Assembly (NCBI GenBank): GCA_964016885.1
Contig: OZ024741.1
Location: 2,480,001-2,544,000, forward strand
DNA from: Eledone cirrhosa
Lineage: Eukaryota
DNA: 64,000 nt
Direction of reading: 5' to 3'
Below the pieces are notes generated by a model. The model did no database searches. It was not told where the DNA came from and saw nothing but the letters and a program-made list of their open reading frames with translations. Position 1 is the stretch's first letter, and every line of letters begins with the position of its first letter. The translations under genes and the position numbers were made by a program. This document shows positions 33,440-64,000 of the stretch, piece after piece.

Positions 33440-33575
<136 letters not shown>

Positions 33576-33978
33576 GTAGAACACTGGAAGGTAATATGCG
33601 TAGTGGTAGAGCACTCAGTCCATGGGACGAGTTAGCTTGTAATGGACATGGTTATAACCATGTCCATTACGAGCTGAAGATCCGCTAAGGTGAAAGCATT
33701 GTTCTCGATATCGTGAACTAACTGTTGTGTTTCCACTTATATATATATATAGAGAGAGAGAGAGCGAAGGAAATGTGATAAGGAACCAGATGGACCATAA
33801 CGCACCAAAGTACTCAATACTTAGGGTAGTAGAGTGGGTAATAGGAACGAGTAGGACCCCGACGGCTGAGCTCAAGCCGTTTCGACGGCTAATTCTGGAC
33901 TAAATGGTATTTTTATTAAATATGGATTTGAAAACCTAGGTTTTCAAATCCATATTTAATAAAAACACCACGTTTTTT

Positions 33979-34045
33979 TATTTATTCTGACGACTGAAAA
34001 CAGATATAAATATCTGCTTCCAAGAAACCACTGGTAAATGAAATA
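33979..34045 (+). ncRNA. Type I hammerhead ribozyme, preceded by a perfect palindrome at 33910-33965
   Basis: TATTTATT-CTGACGA-C-TG...CAGATAT aa ATATCTG...CA-A-GAAA-CCA c TGG-TA-AATGAAATA. Confidence 0.7.
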
Positions 34046-34065
34046 ATTATATATAGTTATATATA

Positions 34066-34125
<60 letters not shown>

Positions 34126-34130
<5 letters not shown>

Positions 34131-35587
34131 ATAAATGCTCTGAAATAGCGATATATATGTGAATATAGACATAGAATATTCGAAAATATTCTGTATGTTT
34201 ATAATAAACATTTTGAAGACCTAATCGCTATAGAATAGAATACGTCACGTATTACAATTAGATTCTCGATAAAAGCAAGGGAAGTAATCTACGCGTTTCA
34301 TTCTTATTAGAAATCTTCAGGACTACATATCCAGTGCTTTTATCGAGAATGACACAGCTAGAGACTTATAGAATACTTAGCTGTGTACATGAACTGGTTT
34401 GAAAGAGCGGTTGCCGGTCCGGCAGAAATTAGAAATTGGAATAAATGCTCTGAAATAGCGATATATATGTGAATATAGACATAGAATATTCGAAAATATT
34501 CTGTATGTTTATAATAAACATTTTGAAGACCTAATCGCTATAGAATAGAATACGTCACGTATTACAATTAGATTCTCGATAAAAGCAAGGGAAGTAATCT
34601 ACGCGTTTCATTCTTATTAGAAATCTTCAGGACTACATATCCAGTGCTTTTATCGAGAATGACACAGCTAGAGACTTATAGAATACTTAGCTGTGTACAT
34701 GAACTGGTTTGAAAGAGCGGTTGCCGGTCCGGCAGAAATTAGAAATTGGAATAAATGCTCTGAAATAGCGATATATATGTGAATATAGACATAGAATATT
34801 CGAAAATATTCTGTATGTTTATAATAAACATTTTGAAGACCTAATCGCTATAGAATAGAATACGTCACGTATTACAATTAGATTCTCGATAAAAGCAAGG
34901 GAAGTAATCTACGCGTTTCATTCTTATTAGAAATCTTCAGGACTACATATCCAGTGCTTTTATCGAGAATGACACAGCTAGAGACTTATAGAATACTTAG
35001 CTGTGTACATGAACTGGTTTGAAAGAGCGGTTGCCGGTCCGGCAGAAATTAGAAATTGGAATAAATGCTCTGAAATAGCGATATATATGTGAATATAGAC
35101 ATAGAATATTCGAAAATATTCTGTATGTTTATAATAAACATTTTGAAGACCTAATCGCTATAGAATAGAATACGTCACGTATTACAATTAGATTCTCGAT
35201 AAAAGCAAGGGAAGTAATCTACGCGTTTCATTCTTATTAGAAATCTTCAGGACTACATATCCAGTGCTTTTATCGAGAATGACACAGCTAGAGACTTATA
35301 GAATACTTAGCTGTGTACATGAACTGGTTTGAAAGAGCGGTTGCCGGTCCGGCAGAAATTAGAAATTGGAATAAATGCTCTGAAATAGCGATATATATGT
35401 GAATATAGACATAGAATATTCGAAAATATTCTGTATGTTTATAATAAACATTTTGAAGACCTAATCGCTATAGAATAGAATACGTCACGTATTACAATTA
35501 GATTCTCGATAAAAGCAAGGGAAGTAATCTACGCGTTTCATTCTTATTAGAAATCTTCAGGACTACATATCCAGTGCTTTTATCGAG
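34126..35587 (-). mobile_element. Retrozyme-like array 2, left part: about 4.7 copies of the 310-bp monomer; HHRs at 34284-34326, 34594-34636, 34904-34946, 35214-35256 and 35524-35566
   Basis: TTGGAATAAATGC at 34126, 34436, 34746, 35056 and 35366; reverse complement of the array 1 unit. Confidence 0.9.
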
Positions 35588-36622
35588 ACGAGAATCTAAT
35601 TGTAATACGTGACGTATTCTATTCTATAGCGATTAGGTCTTCAAAATGTTTATTATAAACATACAGAATATTTTCGAATATTCTATGTCTATATTCACAT
35701 ATATATCGCTATTTCAGAGCATTTATTCCAATTTCTAATTTCTGCCGGACCGGCAACCGCTCTTTCAAACCAGTTCATGTACACAGCTAAGTATTCTATA
35801 AGTCTCTAGCTGTGTCATTCTCGATAAAAGCACTGGATATGTAGTCCTGAAGATTTCTAATAAGAATGAAACGCGTAGATTACTTCCCTTGCTTTTATCG
35901 AGAATCTAATTGTAATACGTGACGTATTCTATTCTATAGCGATTAGGTCTTCAAAATGTTTATTATAAACATACAGAATATTTTCGAATATTCTATGTCT
36001 ATATTCACATATATATCGCTATTTCAGAGCATTTATTCCAATTTCTAATTTCTGCCGGACCGGCAACCGCTCTTTCAAACCAGTTCATGTACACAGCTAA
36101 GTATTCTATAAGTCTCTAGCTGTGTCATTCTCGATAAAAGCACTGGATATGTAGTCCTGAAGATTTCTAATAAGAATGAAACGCGTAGATTACTTCCCTT
36201 GCTTTTATCGAGAATCTAATTGTAATACGTGACGTATTCTATTCTATAGCGATTAGGTCTTCAAAATGTTTATTATAAACATACAGAATATTTTCGAATA
36301 TTCTATGTCTATATTCACATATATATCGCTATTTCAGAGCATTTATTCCAATTTCTAATTTCTGCCGGACCGGCAACCGCTCTTTCAAACCAGTTCATGT
36401 ACACAGCTAAGTATTCTATAAGTCTCTAGCTGTGTCATTCTCGATAAAAGCACTGGATATGTAGTCCTGAAGATTTCTAATAAGAATGAAACGCGTAGAT
36501 TACTTCCCTTGCTTTTATCGAGAATCTAATTGTAATACGTGACGTATTCTATTCTATAGCGATTAGGTCTTCAAAATGTTTATTATAAACATACAGAATA
36601 TTTTCGAATATTCTATGTCTAT
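35588..36622 (+). mobile_element. Retrozyme-like array 2, right part: about 3.3 copies; HHRs at 35841-35883, 36151-36193 and 36461-36503 (core CTGAAGA)
   Basis: Period 310; orientation switches at ...TTTTATCGAGA CGAGAATCTAATTG. Confidence 0.9.
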
Positions 36623-36732
36623 ATATATATATATATATATCAGGACTGGTGCTCTGAAATAGCGATGTATACATGACTGTATGTATAGTATATTTGACAA
36701 TATACCGTATGTTTAATTAAAAACATTTTGAA

Positions 36733-37841
36733 GTCCCAACATGTTGTTGTCGAAGGAGTAAAATCAAGCCCAGCCAAAGTCAGCAGTGGCGTCCCACAAG
36801 GCACTGTGTTGGACCCACTTCTTTTCATCATCTACATTAACGACATTACTGATATCATCAAGCACAGCAACATTAGTTTCTTCCCAGACGATTCCATGCT
36901 CCAGGTCATCAATGAAGTGGGTGACCTGACATCCTCCAGTCAGACATACTGGCTGTTATCTAATGGGCGGGAAAGAACAATTTGCTGTTGAATGAGGATT
37001 AGTTTGAGTTAATCCACTTTGGAAAAAAGGATACCCTGAAACTACCATACTCTCTTCCTTCAGGTGAAATTCTCGTGGCATCCAAGAACATCAGGGACCT
37101 GGGAGTAATTGTGGACAACAACATAAGCTGGGCCACTCATATAAATAGCAAAGTTGACATGGCCTGCAGAATGTGTTCCTGGATTCTCGGAACCTTCCAG
37201 TCGAGAGATATCCACACGGTTATCCTTCTCTTCTCCACTTTTGCCCGACCCCACCTTAAATACTGTTGTCCACTGTGGTCTCCCTACACGAAACAAAGTA
37301 TCACGAAAGTTGAAGCACCTCAAAGGTCAATTACAAAAAAGATAGGTGACATGACAGACCTTGACTTTTGGAGTCGATTAGAAAAGCTCAACCTTTATTC
37401 TCTCCAACGCCGCCGTGAGCACTACATTATCAGCATGATGTTTAAAATATTCCATCAGCTTAGCCCAAATGATGTTGGCATCACCTTTAGTGTACACCCA
37501 AGGCTTGGGCCCCGTGCTATCCACCCACGACAAAAATCTCACTCGCATCTCATAACAACAATACGGCACAGTTATGTCACCTGAATTGGCCCTGCACTCT
37601 TTAACATTACACCAAAACATATTAAAACAGAAACAGACCCCATCAAGTTCAAGAAGTCTTTGGACAAATTCCTTCAAGAAATCCCGGATATGCCTCTTAC
37701 ACCCGGATATGCCTCCGTAAACGATAACTCTCTGCTCGAGTGGGCCATGGTGCCCAAACACTAATTTGTAAGACTTCGCCAGGTGGTGCTATTAAGTTCG
37801 ACATGGCCTGGGCCAATACTGGCCAAATGTTATCAAAGTTA
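36733..37841 (+). mobile_element. 5'-truncated LINE family B (decayed RT C-terminal half)
   Basis: VSSGVPQGTVLDPLLFIIYIND, FPDDS, RDLGVIVD, YCCPLWSP; tail GTTATCAAAGTTA(TA)n. Confidence 0.92.
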
Positions 37842-38688: not shown

Positions 38689-41635
38689 ATGATAGCCATT
38701 GCTAACACCCCAAATGTCACACCAGTGCTGCTGTTAAATGTTATAGGTCATGTGAAACTCACTAACATGAGTAAAATTATATACCTGCGCGACTTAATCA
38801 TAAGCAATCAGGCAATATGCATGGCACTAACCGAAACGCACTTGATAAGCAGTATAGCAGATGCGGAAATACATATACCGAAATATACTGTATTTCGTTC
38901 AGACAGGAAGGAGAGATCTCATGGTGGGGTTACCCTGTACATCTGTGAAGATGTCACACCCATTGTATTGTTGACACATTCAAACTCAGTCTGTGACACA
39001 CTGATAGTACATATGAACAGAAGGATGGAAGAAGACCTTGACAAACTGGACCAGGGTCTCAACATCCTGCTGCTGGTAGACTTTAACCTTCCAAAGGTCA
39101 AATGGCCTGAGGCCCACCTCCTCCCTGGAATGACATCACTAGAACAGAGATAGACGGAGACCCTGCTGGCCCTCACACACACAGGCTTTTCATGGAACAA
39201 GCAGTACTCCTCCCAACAAGAGGCGAGAATGTTGTGGATCTCTGTTTTACAAACAACACCGTGCTCATCCACAATGTAAAGGTAACACCAACGCTTTTCT
39301 CGGATCATAACTTAGTAGAACTAATGATATGTGGTCCGAGAGAATCAACAGAGACACAACCATCAAGAAGCACCGGGAACTTATCCAGCCTTAGCTTCTA
39401 CAAGGCAAACTGGAAAAAGATCAACGAAGAGATCCGGAAGCAATTATGGAGCGGCAACATCACCACACAAGACACCAATACACATTTTCAACACTTCAAT
39501 ACAACAATACAAACTATATTCCATAAGTTTGTCCCGGAGAAAAAAGCCAACGGACACAAAAATCTTATTCCCAGAGACAGGATAATCCTTATGAGACGAA
39601 GAACTAAGCTCTCAAATAAGTTGGATGCATAACAGAAAAACAAGAAGGAATCCTATCTGAAACAGACACTACTTGAAATTGGATCTGCACTCAAACTTCC
39701 CATGAGAAGGAGAGGGTAGAGAGAGAAGCTAGGGCCATAGAAAATATTAAAACAAACTCTAAGCCCTTCTTTAAATTTGCAAAATAAACTGCCTCAGTAC
39801 ACTGCAAGATTGGGCCACACTTTCAAAAATGGTTCATTAACCGAGGAATCCAAGGGATAAGTGAAATACTGAACGAACAATACAAAATTGTGTTCACACC
39901 CCATTGAGGCATATGCAAATAATGAAGCCAGAGGATTTCTTTGATGCCACAACACTCCATGAAGAAATGGGTACCATCAACCACATAGACATAACGGAGG
40001 AGGATTAGAACAAATTAGAAAAAACTCAGCTGCTGGACCTGATATATTCCCAGCAGCCCTCCTAAAAACATATAAGCGTGCCTTAGCAAGACTACTGAAG
40101 ATCCTCTTCAGAAGTTCTTTGGCGAACGGTAAACTACCCAGAGAACTAAAAGAAGGCACAATATGCCCTATCCATAAAGGAGGAAGTAGAGTGGAGGCCA
40201 AAAACTACAGTCCAGTCTCCCTGACGTCACATATCAGTAAGGTCATGGAACGAATCATCAGAAAGAAACTGATCACGTTCCTTAATGAAAATGACTGCCT
40301 AACTAGTAGGCAGCATGGCTTTCGCCCAGGAATAAGCTGCCTTACACAGCTGTTACAACACTATCACTGGGTACTGAAACAACTGCTGGACAGCTCACAT
40401 GTGGACATGATATATCTTGACTTTGCGAAGGTATTTGACAAGGTCGACCACAGAATGATATGTCACAAACTACACAGACTCCCATAACTGGAAAAGTAGG
40501 TGAGTGGCTGCATGATTTCTTAAAAGATAAAAGCCAGACAGTTGCAGCCAACGGAGCCCTCTCAAAGGAAACACCAATAACAAGTGGGGTGCCCCAGGGC
40601 ACAGTCTTGGAACCACTACTGTTTTTGGTGGCTCTCTCAGACATGCCCTCTATAGTATATACAACATCCCTCACTAGCTATGCTGATGACACTAAGGTAG
40701 CACAGGAAATCAAAAACCCAGCTGATGCTGCACTTTTATAACAAGATCTGGATACCATATACAAATGGGCTGAGGACAACAACATGCAGTTTAATGCTGG
40801 AAAATTTCAAGCCCTACAATACTAACCTGCTAACACAAATACAGTACAACACAGCTACACCCGACCAGGAGGATTCGAAATCCCCGTGTCGAAATCGATA
40901 CAAGACCTGGGAATAGACAAGAGTGATGATGCATCTTTTTCTTCACACATCATGAAAGTGGCGACAATGTGCAGACGACTCGCTGGCTGGATCTTGAGGA
41001 CTTTCCGGACAAGAGACCCAGAGACCATGTTGATACTATGGAGGACATTTGTCCTAATACGCCTGGACTACTGCTCCCAGTTGTGGTCACCCCATAGTGT
41101 CAAACTAACCACGGAGCTTGAGGCAATCCAACGAAACTACACCAAGGGTATTGCCACTATGAAGGAGATAAGCTACTGGGAGAGGCTAAAAGATCTGAAC
41201 CTCTACTCCTTGGAACGAAGACCGGAGAGATACGCAGTGATCTACATGTGGAAAATCCTGGAGGGACTAGCACCAAACTTTGGCATTGAGAGCTGGACCA
41301 ACCCCCGAACAGGACGTCACTGTTTGGTGCCAAAGGTCCCGTCTATTATATCTAGAATAAGGAGCAGATATTGCAATAGCCTGGGGTTCAAAGGCCCTCA
41401 ACTCTTCAACAAGATGCCGAGGGATCTGAGAGATTTGCATGGTGTGGACGTGGATTTTTTCAAGAAACATCTCGACACCCTGCTATCCAGGATCCCAGAT
41501 GAGTCCACAGCACGGTACGAAGGTAACCACAGGGCAGCAGCAACGAACTCATTTTTACACCAATGACCAGCCAATACAGGCTGGAGACAGAACGTGTAGC
41601 AACAAGGGCAGTGCCCCAGTATGGCTGAGGCCATT
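38689..41635 (+). mobile_element. LINE family A (CR1/L2 group), near-complete decayed ORF2: AP endonuclease plus RT
   Basis: ALTETHL, FRSDR..RSHGGV, DFNLP, PTRGENVVDL, SDHNLV; GPDIFP, QHGFRPG, YLDFAKVFDKVDH, GVPQGTVL, YADD, LDYCSQLWSP; several stops and frameshifts. Confidence 0.93.
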
Positions 41636-42099: not shown

Positions 42100-45000
42100 A
42101 ACAACAACAACAACCGCCCCAAAATGAACAATAACTACAACAACAGCCACAACAAAAACAACAGAAACAACCACTCCTACATTTCAAGACAATCGTAGAT
42201 TTACTGAATGACACTGTGACCAGCCCTTCGCCTTCAGATTCTCATTCACCTCAGCAACCACCACAATTGTCATCATCATCATCTACTACTGCTACTACTA
42301 TTAACATTTCTACCACCTCAACTAATAATACACCACCGCTTTCTTCCTCTACATCTGAATCATACAGAACTACGAAAATTCTAACAAAATACATGAAGCA
42401 GAATGCGCCCACCACAGCACGAACACGAAACCCAAAAATATGCCGTTATTCACTACGCCAGAATCTCTGCACACTCAGCGATTACATCTTCACACATCTA
42501 CCTGGGACGAGACTCACAATCCATACAAATACTACCAGCCAAAGCAAACATCCCTCAATAACATCAACACCATTAAATACTAAATCAAACGTTAAAACAG
42601 ACGTAACCCAGAATCCCCAAATCTGCCGATATTCCCAACGCGAGAGACTATGTCTGCAGTATGACTGTCCCTTCGCTCATCTTCCAGGGACCCAACACAC
42701 TAACAGAAACGGGGCTCCAAGCCAACACCTAACCCACAATTAAAACACCCCTTGCTGCAGTAATGCTGGCCCAGTCTTTTCACAAAGACACAACAAAAGA
42801 GGTATCTACAACCCTATCCAACAGTGCAACCACACCTCCAGTCAAAAACTGCTCCCTAAGCAGGAAAACTCTTTTTTAGCCATGATGAACCTGACAAAAG
42901 AGATACAAAAAAAACCTTCTAGCCATCAACCAACACTATCCTATGCTATTACCCCAGTGCACCAATTCCCCACATTGCTGTCACTAACACACAATCACAA
43001 AACAAGCCCCCTGCAACAGTCAAAACCAGCAACTACACTAGCCTCCACATTTCTACCAAATGTACAAGATTTTAGCCCTTCCATCAACACCCCAAAACGG
43101 AAGGTCCAATTCATTGAGAATTGGGTTGGTAACCACCCACACCACATTCCATTTCTTCATCCCAACTAAGACCTACCTTGACAACTCCACTTGGAAGCCG
43201 TTAAGTGAAGGTGAATAAATTTACAATCATCTGCACGGATCATGTCGACAGAAGGAAGGATGGAACTGCCATTTTCCTGCATGATTCCTTTACAGCAAAT
43301 AGAAATATCCCATTCTTCAATGGCTACTGTGAATCAGTCACCGTGTACAACAAAGCCAATGACTTGATAATACTGCGCTTTAAAGAATGCCTCAACAGCA
43401 TTAAGTGTTTTATACAACAGTGCCATTCTAGTAATATACTTATGATGGGAGACTTTAATCTACCCTGTATTGATTGGTCTACAAACAAGTTGAAACCAGG
43501 CACCTCAACCACTGACAAAGAAGCAGTTGAGTCACTTCTTCACTTTATGAATGAGTTTTTCTTGTCCCAACTTGTCCTTGCACCAACAAAATATCAGAAC
43601 ATTTTATACCTAGTGTTTAGTAACCACACTATACATATTACCGTGGAAAAAACCCTTACATGGTTCTTTTCAGCCTGAGATTCCACCAGCCAAAAGTTAA
43701 TGCTAGTGACCTCTCTCCAGCCCACCCATTTGATAACTTGGATCTCTATAATGCCAACTGGGATGCAATCATGAACGAGCTATCACATGTTGACTGGTTT
43801 TTCACACACGCACACATCACCACCAACATTTAAACAACCTGGCAGATATTTGTAGACACTGTCACAAATATATGTGAAAAACACACCCCCACCAAGACCT
43901 GTCAAGAAAACTAAGTGCAGAATGCCCCCAAATAGAAAAAAAAATTACCAGAAAAATAAAACGAACAAAAAAAAATCAACATACTAAAATACTGCCAACA
44001 GCAACACACACATTCGACGGCTATCGCACAGCTTGAATCACCAAACTATAACCTCCAACAATACATGAAAACCATCATCAATAACCAAAGAACAGCTGAA
44101 GGGAAGTGGACCATTGAGAAAATCAAACTCAGCCCCAAAAGTGTTCTTTTCGTTTGCGAAAATACACAAGGTCACCGTCTCCACTGTTGGCCCGCTAATT
44201 GATGAAAATGGCATTTAATGCCAAAACCATGGGCGAGATACTGCAGAAACAATACTGCTCTGTTTTCAGCAATCATGATATGGCCGATCTGGGCTGTATC
44301 AGTGATGTTAATTCCCAACACACTATGTCAGACATAACGTTTGGCGCCCCTGATGTCTTAGCGGCAATAAACGAAATTAAACACAATTCAGCAGTAGGCC
44401 CCGACAGGTTCCCTGCTTGTGTCCTGAAGGTGTGACGACACCAACTTGCATCTCCTCTTGCTAATCTGTCGAGGAACTCACTGGACACTGGCTATATTCC
44501 TGAAAACTTTCTGTCCCAGTCTGTTGTTCCAGTTTTTAAAAAGGGAAACAAGTTCCTTGCAGTGAACTACCGTTCGATCTCATATCATTAAGATATTTGA
44601 GAGAGTGATGAGATCGCGAACAACCTACTTTCTTGAAAGCAACAATCTGCCGAATACCAGCCAATATGGGTTCTGTAATGGAAGGGAGTGCCTAACGCAG
44701 CTCCTGCATCACTTTGATGACATTTTGAGAGCTTTGGGAGAGGGCTCCAACACTGAAGTCATCTACCTTGATTTCACCAAGGCCTTTGATAGGGTTGATC
44801 ACAACCTTCTACTGAGAAAACTATCCAACATTGGTGTCTCTGGAAAGTTGCTGCAGTGGATCAAATGTTTCCTGACAAACTGAGCCCAACATGTTGTAGT
44901 TGAAGTCAGTGGCATACCACAAAGAATTGTGCTGGGCCCACTTCTTTTCATTATCTATATCAATGACATTATAGACATCATCAAGGACAGCAACATACGA

Positions 45001-45970
45001 ATCTTTGCAGATGATTCCAAGCTCCAGAAGGTCATCAATGGAGTGGGTTACCGGACATCCTTCAGTCAGACCTACTGGCTGTTATCCAATGAGTGGATAA
45101 GACAATATACAGCTGAACGAGAATAAATTTCAACTAATCCACTTTGGAAAAGAGGATGCACTGAAAGTCTCATATTCTCTCCCCGCGAGTGAAGACCTCG
45201 TGGCATCCAACAACATCATAGATTGGGAATAATTGTGGACAACAACATAGGCTGGGCCACTCATATAAATAGCAAAGTTGACATGGCCCGCAGAATGTGT
45301 TCCTGGATTCTCAGAACTTTCAAGGCAAGAGATATCCCCACTGTTATCCTTCTCTTTTCCACTTTTGCCCGACCCCACCTTAAATACTGTTGTCCACTGT
45401 GGTCCCCTCACACGAAACAAGGTATCATGATAGTTGAAGCACCTCAAAGGTCAATTACAAAAAAGATAGATGGCATGACAGGCCTTGACTATTGGGGTCG
45501 ATTAGAAAAGCTCAAACTTTATTCTCTCCAACGTCGCCGTGAGCGCTACATTATCTGTATAATGTGGAAAATATTCCATCAGCATGCCCAAATGATGTTG
45601 GCATCACCTTTAATGTACACCCAAGGCTTGGGCCCCGTGCTATCCGCCCACAACAAAAATCTCACTCGCATCTCATAACAACATTACAGCACAATTATTT
45701 CACCTCAATTGGCCCCGCTCTCTTTAACATTACAGCAAAACACATTAAAACAGGAACAGACCCCATCAAATTTCAAGAAGTCTTTGGACAAATTCCCACT
45801 GAAAATCCCGGATAAGCCTCCTACACCCGGATATGTCTCCGTAAACAATAACTCTCTACTTTAGTGTGCCATGGTGCCCAAACACTGATTTGTAAGACTT
45901 CGCCAGGTGGTGTTATTAAGTTAGACATGGCCTGGGCCAGTACTGGCCGAAACCTATCAAAGTTATCAAG
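42100..45970 (+). mobile_element. LINE family B (CR1/L2 group), near full length and decayed: ORF1-like region with two CCCH-type fingers, APE and RT
   Basis: 42216-42743 has CRYSQRERLCLQYDCPFAH; MGDFNLPCIDW; GPDRFP; YLDFTKAFDRVDH; FADD; 3' tail TATCAAAGTTATCAAG. Confidence 0.9.
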
Positions 45971-52389: not shown

Positions 52390-53405
52390 TGGAATAGAAT
52401 GAAACGAAATTTCATTTCTCACTCTTAGTACGGCACTTACTTAAATGTAAGTATGTATGTATGTATACGTACATACATATATGTATACAGCGTACAGTAG
52501 TATGTATATATATACACACATGCACACATATATATATATGCACGTATCGGTTTACCGAACATTTATTATAATGCTTGGTTTGTTTGTTTGTAAACAAACA
52601 AACAGTCCGAATTAGGCCGTACAGTGTTTAGGCAACCACGTCACCTTTTTGTTCAACACTGACACAGGAACGATGTACTAGTTTCAAGCTTATTAGCTAT
52701 CGTCAGCATCGTATACCTTCCCGTCAGATGTTTGAACGTCTGAAAGTATATACTTTCCTTATGCATATTAACGGCTGAGCAGCCTAATTTGCATATCGAG
52801 TGAGTTCAGTCGGCCGGGCACACCGAAAACAAACCGAGCATTACAATAAATGTACGGTAAACCGATACGTGCATATATATATATGTGTGCATGTGTGTAT
52901 ATATATACATACTACTGTATACGTACATACATATATGTATGTACGTATACATACATACTTACATTTAAGTAAGTGCCGTACTAAGAGTTAGAAATGAAAT
53001 TTCGTTTCATTCTATTCCATTTATTGTTTTCGGTGTGCCCGGCCGACTGAACTCACTCGATATGCAAATTAGGCTGCTCAGCCGTTAATATGCATAAGGA
53101 AAGTATATACTTTCAGATGTTCAACCATCTGGCAGGAAGGTATACGATGCTGACGATAGCTAATAAGCTTGAAACTAGTACATCGTTCCTGTGTCAGTGT
53201 TGAACAAAAAGGTGACGTGGTTGCCTAAACACTGTACGGCCTAATTCGGGCTGTTTGTTTGTTTACAAACAAACAAACCAAGCATTATAATAAATGTTCG
53301 GTAAACCGATACGTGCATATATATATGTGTGCATGTGTGTATATATATACATACTACTATACGTCTGTATACATATTTGTATGTACGCATACAAACATAC
53401 ATACT
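52390..53405. mobile_element. Hammerhead-bearing element of about 440 bp, present as one minus copy followed by about 1.3 tandem plus copies
   Basis: 52390-52575 is the reverse complement of 52827-53019; 52575-52830 is the reverse complement of 53026-53280; AAACAAACC(G/A)AGCATTA at about 52827 and 53271. Confidence 0.85.
53144..53186 (+). ncRNA. Type I minimal hammerhead ribozyme; identical inverted copy at 52670-52712(-)
   Basis: ACGATG-CTGACGA-T-AGCT-aata-AGCT-T-GAAA-CTAG-TA-CATCGT. Confidence 0.9.
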
Positions 53406-53779: not shown

Positions 53780-55372
53780 AGCAGTACTATATAGGCGGCA
53801 GTACTATAGAAGTGGCAGTACTATAGAGGTGGCAGTACTATAGAGGTGGCAGTACTATAGAGCTGGCAGTACTATAGAGGTGGCAGTACTATAGAAGTGG
53901 CAGTACTATAGAGGTGGCAGTACTATAGAGGTGGCAGTACTATAGAGGTGGCAGTACTATAGAAGTGGCAGTTCTATAGAGGTGGCAGTGCTACAGAGGT
54001 AGCAGTTGTAGTATAGAGGTGGCAGTACTATAGAGGTGGCAGTACTATAGAAGTGGCAGTGCTATAGAGGTGGCAGTACTATAGAAGTGGCAGTACTATA
54101 GAGGTGGCAGTACTATAGAAGTGGCAGTTCTATAGAGGTGGCAGTGCTATAAAGGTGGCAGTACTATAGAGGTGGCAGTACTATAGAGGTGGCAGTATTA
54201 TAGAGGTGGCAGTGCTACAGAGGTAGCAGTTGTAGTATAGAAGTGGCAGTACTATAGAGGTGGCAGTACTATAGAGGTGGCAGTACTATAGAGGTGGCAG
54301 TACTATAGAAGTGGCAGTTCTATAGAGGTGGCAGTGCTACAGAGGTAGCAGTTGTAGTATAGAGGTGGCAGTACTATAGAGGTGGCAGTACTATAGAGGT
54401 AGCAGTATAGAGGTAGTAGTACTATAGAGGTGGCAGTACTATAGAGGTAGCAGTATAGAGGTAGTAGTACTATAGAGGTGGCAGTACTATAGAGGTGGCA
54501 GTACTATAGAAGTGGCAGTGCTATAGAATGTGGCAGGGCTACAGAGGTGGCAGTACTATAGAGGTGGCAGTACTATAGAGGTGGCAGTACTATAGAGGTG
54601 GCAGTACTATAGAGGTGGCAGTACTATAGAGGTGGAAGTATTATAGAGGTGGCAGTATTATAGAAGTGGCAGTACTATAGAGATGGCAGTGCTACAGAGG
54701 TAGCAGTAGTAGTATAGAGGTAGTAGTACTATAGAGGTGGCAGTACTATAGAGGTAGCAGTATAGAGGTAGTAGTACTATAGAGGTGGCAGTACTATAGA
54801 GGTAGCAGTATAGAGGTAGTAGTACTATAGAGGTGGCAGTACTATAGAGGTAGCAGTATAGAGGTAGTAGTACTATAGAGGTGGCAGTATTATAGAGGTG
54901 GCAGTATTATAGAGGTGGCAGTACTATAGAAGTGGCAGTGCTACAGAGGTAGCAGTAGTAGTATAGAGGTAGTAGTACTATAGAGGTGGCAGTACTATAG
55001 AGGTAGCAGTAGTAGTATAGAGGTAGTAGTACTATAGAGGTGGCAGTACTATAGAGGTGGCAGTACTATAGAGGTGGCAGTGCTACAGAGGTAGCAGTAG
55101 TAGTATAGAGGTAGTAGTACTATAGAGGTGGCAGTACTATAGAGGTAGCGGTAGTAGTATAGAGGTAGTAGTACTATAGAGGTGGCAGTATTATAGAGCC
55201 GAGGTTTACTTTGCCTTTCATCCTTACGGGGTCGATAAAATAAAGTACCAGTAATGTACTGGAATAATTGCTGGCCTTGTGCAAAAAGTAGAAACAAGTA
55301 TTATAGAGGTGGCAGTACTATAGAGGTGGCAGTGCTATAGAGGTGGCAGTGCTATAGAGATTGCAGTAGTAG
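53780..55372. repeat. 17-bp minisatellite (AGAGGTGGCAGTACTAT)n, interrupted by a SINE 3' half at 55198-55297
   Basis: Direct reading. Confidence 0.96.
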
Positions 55373-60565: not shown

Positions 60566-63500
60566 ATGTAGTCAACAGGTTTGAGAGGTGTAGTCAATAG
60601 GTTGAAGAGGTGTAGTCAATAGGTTGAAGAGGTGTAGTCAATAGGTTGAAGAGCTGTAGTCAATAGGTTGAAGAGGTGTAGTCAATAGGTTGAAGAGGTG
60701 TAGTCAATAGGTTGAAGAGGTGTAGTCAATAGGTTGAAGAGGTGTAGTCAATAGGTTGAAGAGGTGTAGTCAACAGGTTTGAGAGGTGTAGTCAATAGGT
60801 TGAAGAGGTGTAGTCAATAGGTTTAAGAGGTGTAGTCAATAGGTTGAAGAGGTGTAGTCAATAGGTTGAAGAGGTGTAGTCAATAGGTTGAAGAGGTGTA
60901 GTCAATAGGTTTAAGAGGTGTAGTCAATAGGTTGAAGAGGTGTAGTCAATAGGTTGAAGAGGTGTAGTCAATAGGTTGAAGAGGTGTAGTCAATAGGTTG
61001 AAGAGGTGTAGTCAATAGGTTTAAGAGGTGTAGTCAATAGGTTGAAGAGGTGTAGTCAATAGGTTGAAGAGGTGTAGTCAATAGGTTTAAGAGGTGTAGT
61101 CAATAGGTTGAAGAGGTGTAGTCAATAGGTTGAAGAGGTGTAGTCAATAGGTTGAAGAGGTGTAGTCAATAGGTTGAAGAGGTGTAGTCAACAGGTTTGA
61201 GAGGTGTAGTCAATAGGTTGAAGAGGTGTAGTCAATAGGTTGAAGAGGTGTAGTCAATAGGTTGAAGAGGTGTAGTCAATAGGTTGAAGAGGTGTAGTCA
61301 ACAGGTTTGAGAGGTGTAGTCAATAGGTTGAAGAGGTGTAGTCAATAGGTTGAAGAGCTGTAGTCAATAGGTTGAAGAGGTGTAGTCAATAGGTTGAAGA
61401 GCTGTAGTCAATAGGTTGAAGAGGTGTAGTCAATAGGTTGAAGAGGTGTAGTCAATAGGTTGAAGAGGTGTAGTCAATAGGTTGAAGAGGTGTAGTCAAC
61501 AGGTTTAAGAGCTGTAGTCAATAGGTTTAAGAGCTGTAGTCAATAGGTTGAAGAGGTGTAGTCAATAGGTTGAAGAGCTGTAGTCAATAGGTTGAAGAGG
61601 TGTAGTCAATAGGTTGAAGAGGTGTAGTCAATAGGTTGAAGAGGTGTAGTCAACAGGTTTAAGAGCTGTAGTCAATAGGTTTAAGAGGTGTAGTCAATAG
61701 GTTGAAGAGCTGTAGTCAATAGGTTGAAGAGGTGTAGTCAATAGGTTGAAGAGCTGTAGTCAATAGGTTGAAGAGGTGTAGTCAATAGGTTGAAGAGGTG
61801 TAGTCAATAGGTTGAAGAGGTGTAGTCAACAGGTTTGAGAGGTGTAGTCAATAGGTTGAAGAGGTGTAGTCAATAGGTTGAAGAGGTGTAGTCAATAGGT
61901 TGAAGAGGTGTAGTCAATAGGTTGAAGAGGTGTAGTCAATAGGTTGAAGAGGTGTAGTCAATAGGTTGAAGAGGTGTAGTCAATAGGTTGAAGAGGTGTA
62001 GTCAATAGGTTGAAGAGGTGTAGTCAATAGGTTGAAGAGGTGTAGTCAATAGGTTGAAGAGCTGTAGTCAATAGGTTGAAGAGGTGTAGTCAATAGGTTG
62101 AAGAGGTGTAGTCAATAGGTTGAAGAGGTGTAGTCAACAGGTTTGAGAGGTGTAGTCAATAGGTTGAAGAGGTGTAGTCAATAGGTTGAAGAGCTGTAGT
62201 CAATAGGTTGAAGAGGTGTAGTCAATAGGTTGAAGAGCTGTAGTCAATAGGTTGAAGAGGTGTAGTCAATAGGTTGAAGAGGTGTAGTCAATAGGTTGAA
62301 GAGGTGTAGTCAATAGGTTGAAGAGGTGTAGTCAACAGGTTTAAGAGCTGTAGTCAATAGGTTTAAGAGCTGTAGTCAATAGGTTGAAGAGGTGTAGTCA
62401 ATAGGTTGAAGAGCTGTAGTCAATAGGTTGAAGAGGTGTAGTCAATAGGTTGAAGAGGTGTAGTCAATAGGTTGAAGAGGTGTAGTCAATAGGTTGAAGA
62501 GGTGTAGTCAATAGGTTGAAGAGGTGTAGTCAATAGGTTGAAGAGCTGTAGTCAATAGGTTGAAGAGGTGTAGTCAATAGGTTGAAGAGGTGTAGTCAAT
62601 AGGTTGAAGAGGTGTAGTCAATAGGTTGAAGAGGTGTAGTCAACAGGTTTAAGAGCTGTAGTCAATAGGTTTAAGAGCTGTAGTCAATAGGTTGAAGAGG
62701 TGTAGTCAATAGGTTGAAGAGCTGTAGTCAATAGGTTGAAGAGGTGTAGTCAATAGGTTGAAGAGGTGTAGTCAATAGGTTGAAGAGGTGTAGTCAACAG
62801 GTTTAAGAGCTGTAGTCAATAGGTTTAAGAGGTGTAGTCAATAGGTTGAAGAGCTGTAGTCAATAGGTTGAAGAGGTGTAGTCAATAGGTTGAAGAGCTG
62901 TAGTCAATAGGTTGAAGAGGTGTAGTCAATAGGTTGAAGAGGTGTAGTCAATAGGTTGAAGAGGTGTAGTCAACAGGTTTGAGAGGTGTAGTCAATAGGT
63001 TGAAGAGGTGTAGTCAATAGGTTGAAGAGGTGTAGTCAATAGGTTGAAGAGGTGTAGTCAATAGGTTGAAGAGGTGTAGTCAATAGGTTGAAGAGGTGTA
63101 GTCAATAGGTTGAAGAGGTGTAGTCAATAGGTTGAAGAGGTGTAGTCAATAGGTTGAAGAGGTGTAGTCAATAGGTTGAAGAGGTGTAGTCAATAGGTTG
63201 AAGAGCTGTAGTCAATAGGTTGAAGAGGTGTAGTCAATAGGTTGAAGAGGTGTAGTCAATAGGTTGAAGAGGTGTAGTCAACAGGTTTGAGAGGTGTAGT
63301 CAATAGGTTGAAGAGGTGTAGTCAATAGGTTGAAGAGCTGTAGTCAATAGGTTGAAGAGGTGTAGTCAATAGGTTGAAGAGCTGTAGTCAATAGGTTGAA
63401 GAGGTGTAGTCAATAGGTTGAAGAGGTGTAGTCAATAGGTTGAAGAGGTGTAGTCAATAGGTTGAAGAGGTGTAGTCAACAGGTTTAAGAGCTGTAGTCA

Positions 63501-64000
63501 ATAGGTTTAAGAGCTGTAGTCAATAGGTTGAAGAGGTGTAGTCAATAGGTTGAAGAGCTGTAGTCAATAGGTTGAAGAGGTGTAGTCAATAGGTTGAAGA
63601 GGTGTAGTCAATAGGTTGAAGAGGTGTAGTCAACAGGTTTAAGAGCTGTAGTCAATAGGTTTAAGAGGTGTAGTCAATAGGTTGAAGAGCTGTAGTCAAT
63701 AGGTTGAAGAGGTGTAGTCAATAGGTTGAAGAGCTGTAGTCAATAGGTTGAAGAGGTGTAGTCAATAGGTTGAAGAGGTGTAGTCAATAGGTTGAAGAGG
63801 TGTAGTCAACAGGTTTGAGAGGTGTAGTCAATAGGTTGAAGAGGTGTAGTCAATAGGTTGAAGAGGTGTAGTCAATAGGTTGAAGAGGTGTAGTCAATAG
63901 GTTGAAGAGGTGTAGTCAATAGGTTGAAGAGGTGTAGTCAATAGGTTGAAGAGGTGTAGTCAATAGGTTTAAGAGGTGTAGTCAATAGGTTGAAGAGGTG
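60566..64000. repeat. 22-bp minisatellite (GGTGTAGTCAATAGGTTGAAGA)n, over 150 units, running off the window
   Basis: Direct reading, period 22, with variant units in a higher-order pattern. Confidence 0.98.

Follow-up and report, generated by a model that had tools for sequence, protein, structure and literature searches.

The window analysed here is a stretch of 64,000 nt from Eledone cirrhosa (GenBank assembly GCA_964016885.1, contig OZ024741.1, positions 2,480,001 to 2,544,000 of the forward strand). At 34,125-36,624 it contains an inverted array in which two exact arrays of a 310-nt unit abut at 35588/35589 in opposite orientations, with (TA)n on either side. An overview of the features is given in Table 1. 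The left arm (1464 nt, zero mismatches) is 428 nt longer than the right arm (1036 nt). No target-site duplication is legible, the array ends sitting inside (TA)n. The older relative that ends at the same right TA tract is likely an earlier insertion whose TA tract was hit again.

Table 1 Inverted 310-nt array and related features. Coordinates are those of the window except where a locus is named
Feature	Position	Strand
Left (TA)n target tract, preceded by a (CA)n run	34095..34124	
Left arm of 4.72 identical units, running from unit position 226 to 3, with its start at site B	34125..35588	-
One-sided 'tail' at the left outer end, unit positions 226-189, absent from the right end	34125..34162	-
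Four complete hammerheads, each including the stem-I extension	34262-34350, 34572-34660, 34882-34970, 35192-35280	-
Central hammerhead; 16-mer at 35502-35517, second 16-mer cut to 14 letters at 35575-35588	35502..35588	-
Inversion junction 35588/35589, blunt, 5-letter overlap retained twice	35584..35593	+
Right arm of 3.34 identical units, running from unit position 83 to 188, with site A as its outer end	35589..36624	+
One 310-nt unit	35817..36126	+
Type I hammerhead, core at 35847, predicted cut after 35877	35817-35905	+
Two further hammerheads (36127-36215 and 36437-36525)	36127..36525	+
Right (TA)n target tract	36625..36640	
Older relative (80% over 90 nt) whose end lies at the right TA tract as well	36638..36741	-
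Second array of the family, different haplotype, single orientation, ending at site B, TA-rich on both sides	29150..30028	+
Older, diverged sister family, four loci	L039:8165-9270, L087:7316-7819, L107:3516-4320, L118:3319-3814	

The initial annotation had described units in minus orientation, a duplicated CGAGA and then units in plus orientation, forming a palindrome with arms of about 1 kb and one hammerhead as its loop. This description is correct: CGAGA stands twice in tandem at 35584-35593, and a perfect palindrome is formed by arms at 34473-35508 and 35589-36624 (1036 nt each) around an 80-nt spacer with one hammerhead, sense on the minus strand. The orientation was further said to flip exactly within the inverted repeat of stem I. 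The junction does lie inside this helix, with 14 of the 16 letters of the 16-mer on its left side and 7 on its right, but it is a blunt join that keeps five letters twice and not a seamless crossover. The junction sequence folds as a DNA hairpin (z -4.89).

A type I hammerhead core with stems I-III and the cut triplet is present in 8/8 copies in the inverted array. Its 6-bp inner stem I is prolonged by a 16-bp helix between unit positions 1-16 and 74-89, which agrees with the earlier reading of the 16-mer, found in both orientations, as the stem-I extension. The 16-mer is the longest inverted repeat in the unit, and its outer stem-I pairing has a z of -4.25, with 1 of 200 shuffles equally stable. 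Stem III consists of one pair with a palindromic tetraloop, as is described for HHR_Amex1 of the axolotl. Rfam gave no hammerhead match to the unit, neither at the gathering score nor at E values up to 10, and the ribozyme call is therefore based on the core motif and the stems. No ORF of 120 aa was found over the inverted array, and the GC content is 0.32-0.33. The unit is a non-coding, non-autonomous non-LTR retrozyme with a predicted self-cutting motif. It has the tandem units of 150-450 bp, the type I hammerhead in each unit, the lack of coding sequence and the GC content below 50% that define this class. It lacks an ORF of its own with RT and GIY-YIG, which marks an autonomous Penelope-like element (PLE). 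Metazoan non-LTR retrozymes (PMC7229834; Li et al., bioRxiv 10.64898/2026.07.22.740005) are likewise described as non-coding tandem units of 150-450 bp with low GC and a type I hammerhead each, and mobilisation by PLEs has been proposed for them. In Li et al. (10.64898/2026.07.22.740005), one of nine Xenopus elements is reported to have self-cleaved.

The 3.0-Gb genome was searched with a pattern for the outer end at site B, which gave 988 exact matches. A total of 102 arrays was mapped: the two in the window, 20 of 23 other listed arrays and 80 of the 988 pattern matches. These last 80 loci are the first in order on C1 and were selected by a B end. Inverted arrays account for 92 of the 102, all of them minus-then-plus (head-to-head) and none plus-then-minus; six are closed with one orientation and four are cut off by a gap or by the end of the sequence examined. 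Since 92/102 arrays are inverted, inversion is the normal layout of the family, and the junction as such is ordinary within it.

Outer ends, on which the initial annotation was silent, as it was on the (TA)n target, are fixed and paired. In all 88 inverted arrays with both ends visible, one end is site A (unit position 179-200, mostly 191 or 200) and the other site B (226-233, main site 226). The two sites are 26-40 nt apart. This pairing was found in 17/17 arrays of the set not picked by ends and in 71/71 of the set picked by a B end, and TA-rich flanks are present on both sides in 86/88. An exception among loci examined later is L262, a seamless stem-I join with B at both ends. Of the arms, 138/176 are longer than two units, and neither arm type is the longer one (41 to 47). 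From the 988 matches, the 74/80 pattern-match loci that are inverted and the 12/18 B ends lying exactly at 226, the family is estimated at 900-1,400 inverted insertions, that is, about a thousand. An older, diverged sister family, which shares unit positions ~120-296, has the same polarity and matching end sites in four loci.

The arrays fall into 35 haplotypes, and 93/768 units deviate from the majority of their own array. In 66/68 arrays, both arms carry the same letter at each of the 15 sites that are polymorphic in the family, and in 2/68 a family site differs between the arms; arms taken from different arrays agree in 11%. In 12 arrays a private variant is found in every unit of both arms; one private variant is fixed in one arm only. 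This pattern fits repeated copying of one monomer, most simply a circle. A long linear transcript from a uniform array would equally give identical units, for any single event.

Inner junctions were analysed at 91 loci, each against the haplotype of its own locus (L048 was left out). Their breakpoints are distributed over the whole unit. Microhomology is found at 53 junctions, 11 are blunt and 27 carry inserts, many of which are copied from nearby sequence, while a few long 'inserts' are anchoring errors on short arms. Among the 64 insert-free junctions, 34 have microhomology of at least 2 nt (18.5% expected). Short fold-back loops were counted at four scales (observed 3, 6, 9 and 22 vs 1.5, 3.8, 9.1 and 18.5 expected, the last pair within 31 nt). 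An excess of short loops seen with the window's unit as reference was gone once each locus's own haplotype was used. Overall, the junctions look as if two cDNA ends of independent origin had undergone end joining.

A survey of other arrays for inversions at the same 16-mer was suggested in the initial annotation, and random placement was named as contrary evidence. Random placement is largely what was found: joins from stem-I arm to stem-I arm make up 2/91 junctions, the window locus and L056. With the window locus left out, the 3' arm of stem I holds 20/180 breakpoints vs 9.3 expected (p 0.001, or 0.11 when all 16-nt windows are scanned) and the 5' arm 12/180 vs 9.3. Genome-wide, the seamless stem-I join has 18 exact matches, where ~0.3-0.5 are expected and random joining would yield this product in 0.035% of cases; its reciprocal has none. 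Seventeen of the seamless loci were examined: two are complex, and the other 15 are simple two-arm insertions, among which two represent a local duplicate. Stem I is accordingly a minor hotspot, some 30-fold, that takes up roughly 1-2% of joins. It may be due to microhomology alone, or stalling of the enzyme where it runs into the stem-I helix may contribute as well. The template switch guided by this helix during reverse transcription, as first proposed, was thus right in pointing to a product of retrotransposition and to stem I as a site of some preference. The helix as the cause of the inversion is unsupported, because 89/91 junctions lie elsewhere and inversion is the default.

Insertions of PLEs are described as carrying an inverted truncated copy and a tail of 30-40 bp, usually on one end, and as lying in (TA)n targets (Craig et al., 10.1101/2021.04.23.441226); according to the same source, how PLEs produce tandem and inverted insertions is undefined. 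A PLE protein, which has been modelled as a dimer, cuts and extends both strands; its two start sites on the RNA delimit the tail, and the strands showed no difference in start site in vitro (Frangieh et al., PMC11167929). All three parts of this insertion signature, the inverted copy, the one-sided tail and the (TA)n target, are found in the retrozyme arrays.

The same end pairing occurs in autonomous elements of this genome. The RT-coding family P0003 encodes 905 aa with RVT_1 and GIY-YIG above the Pfam cut-off, and in 9/9 of its inverted pairs one long end is combined with one short end, 40-41 nt apart. The RT-coding family P0002 has the same pairing in 6/6 resolvable pairs (seven in total). 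The inverted pairs of both families were picked from neighbouring matches on opposite strands. Pfam found nothing in most PLE-like ORFs; P0001, P0002 and P0004 are families that we take to be PLE-like from motifs only. In P0003 (L240-L249), the left arm, in terms of the assembly plus strand, carries the long end in 9/9 pairs, which is expected in ~1 of 256 cases by chance; such a bias is absent in P0002 and in the retrozyme.

A profile from eight copies of the conserved part of the unit was run, in search of a partner element, against 100 loci that represent four RT families and include flanks of 1.5 kb. Its matches were confined to retrozyme arrays and a sister copy, and none of the 100 loci shares any part of the unit. 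Local alignments of the unit with the ends of two RT families are at chance level, 160 and 173 of 300 shuffles scoring as high. Mobilisation of retrozymes by PLEs has so far been argued from co-occurrence and pLTR homology (10.64898/2026.07.22.740005; PMC7229834).

The array is a head-to-head retrozyme insertion into a TA microsatellite. It likely arose through priming of a Penelope-type RT on both cut strands and end joining of the two copies, here within stem I. The unit would be transcribed, cut and closed into a circle. A PLE protein acting in trans, probably as a dimer, would bind the RNA near positions 180-230 and nick both strands of (TA)n. One target strand would then prime at site A and the other at site B, 26-40 nt away, and each cDNA would grow to as many as about 20 units by circling the template before the two cDNA 3' ends are united by microhomology-mediated end joining. 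In the window, priming from the top target strand would have given the left arm, and priming from the bottom strand the right arm. Stem I would matter at the joining step only, where it probably holds up the enzyme and supplies the longest stretch of microhomology in the unit (16 nt).

This reading draws on the layout, the single polarity, the two fixed outer starts paired one each and the shared haplotypes, all of which are directly seen, as are the short microhomologies at spread-out junctions and the small excess at stem I. It is weakened by the six closed arrays with a single arm, by L262 with both ends at B, by the in vitro start site being the same for both strands (PMC11167929) and by the lack of an autonomous partner among the 100 loci of four RT families; for the stem-I step, the excess at the 3' arm falls to p 0.11 in the scan of all windows. 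More tentatively, a PLE dimer could hold one circular RNA at two sites, one per nicked strand, and copy both arms at once, with stem I serving as pause and splint where the cDNAs meet. If true, one mechanism would account for the inverted copies of PLEs, their one-sided tail and retrozyme arrays that are born full-length.

Both arms could also stem from a single cDNA whose 3' end snaps back, here on stem I, and copies itself into the second arm. This is in essence the template switch of the initial annotation. A similar model was put forward by Arkhipova et al. (2013), and self-priming has been proposed for the inverted ends of PLEs (PMC3846280). It gives the same polarity and a shared haplotype, and it suits the hairpin formed by the junction sequence, the 18 seamless stem-I joins and L259, which stops at the same unit position 3 as the window's left arm and then slips. 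We nevertheless regard it as unlikely: short loops are not in excess at any scale tested, the end of the second arm at the other fixed site (88/88) is left unexplained, and site B shares only about two letters with (TA)n. Priming on both strands from two separate RNA molecules, one per target strand, would spare two enzymes from displacing each other on one circle. Dual priming has been proposed for L1 (PMC2837659), and 2/68 arrays do have arms that differ at a family site. Yet arms agree in 66/68 against 11% by chance and the private variants of 12 arrays sit in both arms, which makes two templates very unlikely and viable only if a single source locus dominates the RNA of each cell.

Recombination between inverted 16-mers after insertion, by which part of a tandem array is flipped, would make use of the longest inverted repeat of the unit. 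It was the second origin offered in the initial annotation and can be given almost no credence, because the reciprocal product, which is expected too, is missing (0 exact matches vs 18). Moreover, plus-then-minus arrays are absent (0/102), 89/91 junctions lie outside the arm-to-arm joins of stem I, and recombination cannot place a fixed start site at both outer ends. Palindromes are a known artefact of long reads, and the junction is unbridged in the listed contigs of X1, X2, X3 and X5, which include three short-read runs, although this carries no weight either way. Fold-back chimeric reads or an assembly error are nonetheless exceedingly improbable: the two flanks differ, the arms are unequal in length, 92 loci have junctions of their own with one polarity and paired ends, and run X1, which may be the source sample, has TA loose ends at unit positions 200 and 231.

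Priming on both target strands, as preferred here, relates the arrays to known systems. Endonuclease-bearing PLEs share the head-to-head truncated copy, the tail of 30-40 nt on one end, the (TA)n target and two RT starts (10.1101/2021.04.23.441226; PMC3846280; PMC11167929), whereas the retrozyme has no ORF, both its arms are multimers of the 310-nt unit, and no sequence link to a PLE was found in the loci of four RT families searched. Twin or dual priming of L1 likewise involves priming by both target strands, head-to-head arms and microhomology at the inner junction (PMC2837659). Unlike in L1, the retrozyme has no poly(A) start, both starts are fixed, and inversion is the rule (92/102) where it is a variant in L1 (PMC2837659). 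Twin priming of the L1 type, with a poly(A) start and a variable internal start, was rejected as a candidate, both starts here being internal and fixed.

Metazoan retrozymes are described as tandem in PMC7229834 and 10.64898/2026.07.22.740005, whose main texts use the word 'orientation' 0 times; no mention of fixed paired ends was found in the text available to us. Li et al. propose that tandem copies multiply locally once an element has inserted; the Eledone arrays, by contrast, look born multimeric. In the literature text available to us, no report was found of inverted two-armed retrozyme arrays with paired ends or of stem-I joins, and the available text of PMC13282606 does not mention retrozymes. 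Non-LTR retrozymes and the PLE layout are both already known; new are the stem-I test and the finding that this genome's autonomous elements have their ends paired in the same way. With about a thousand young insertions of one polarity and strictly paired ends, the family offers a natural data set for the PLE mechanism. Each insertion is also a kilobase palindrome and may be a source of dsRNA and instability.

The unit was found in 20 public sequencing runs from 17 studies with 18 organism labels, and no RNA run was among those listed. Runs X4, X5 and X10 each contain it as a single self-closing contig of 340 nt, and the haplotype of X4 and X10 is also present in this genome. In 12.8 million raw DNA reads of X4's organism, no match to the unit was found. 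Such occurrences of the unit may represent contamination, an RNA circle or horizontal spread.

At L259:4330-4560, the junction contains several short slips, one of them at unit position 3. Further hammerhead families and repeats are present in the window. At 52500-53353, another hammerhead family is arranged head-to-head, with arms 88% alike and ribozymes at 52706 (-) and 53150 (+). A third family, found at 16590-16690 and also at L174 and L179, consists of two back-to-back hammerheads with a core nearly identical to that of the retrozyme and a longer stem III. Another hammerhead-like motif, which has a long stem II loop, is dispersed in three copies at 14648, 26392 and 30873. Just left of the inverted array, at 33570-34070, lie short palindromic insertions. 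They comprise arms of 85 nt (96%) and two almost perfect hairpins (42 nt and 66 nt). Similar palindromic pieces occur at 16430-16870 and beside several PLE-like loci. Decayed LINE-like ORF pieces, their family judged by eye, are found at 36780-37790, 38689-41566 and 43205-45678, and minisatellites of 17 nt and 22 nt with a strong G skew at 53781-55368 and 60567-64000.
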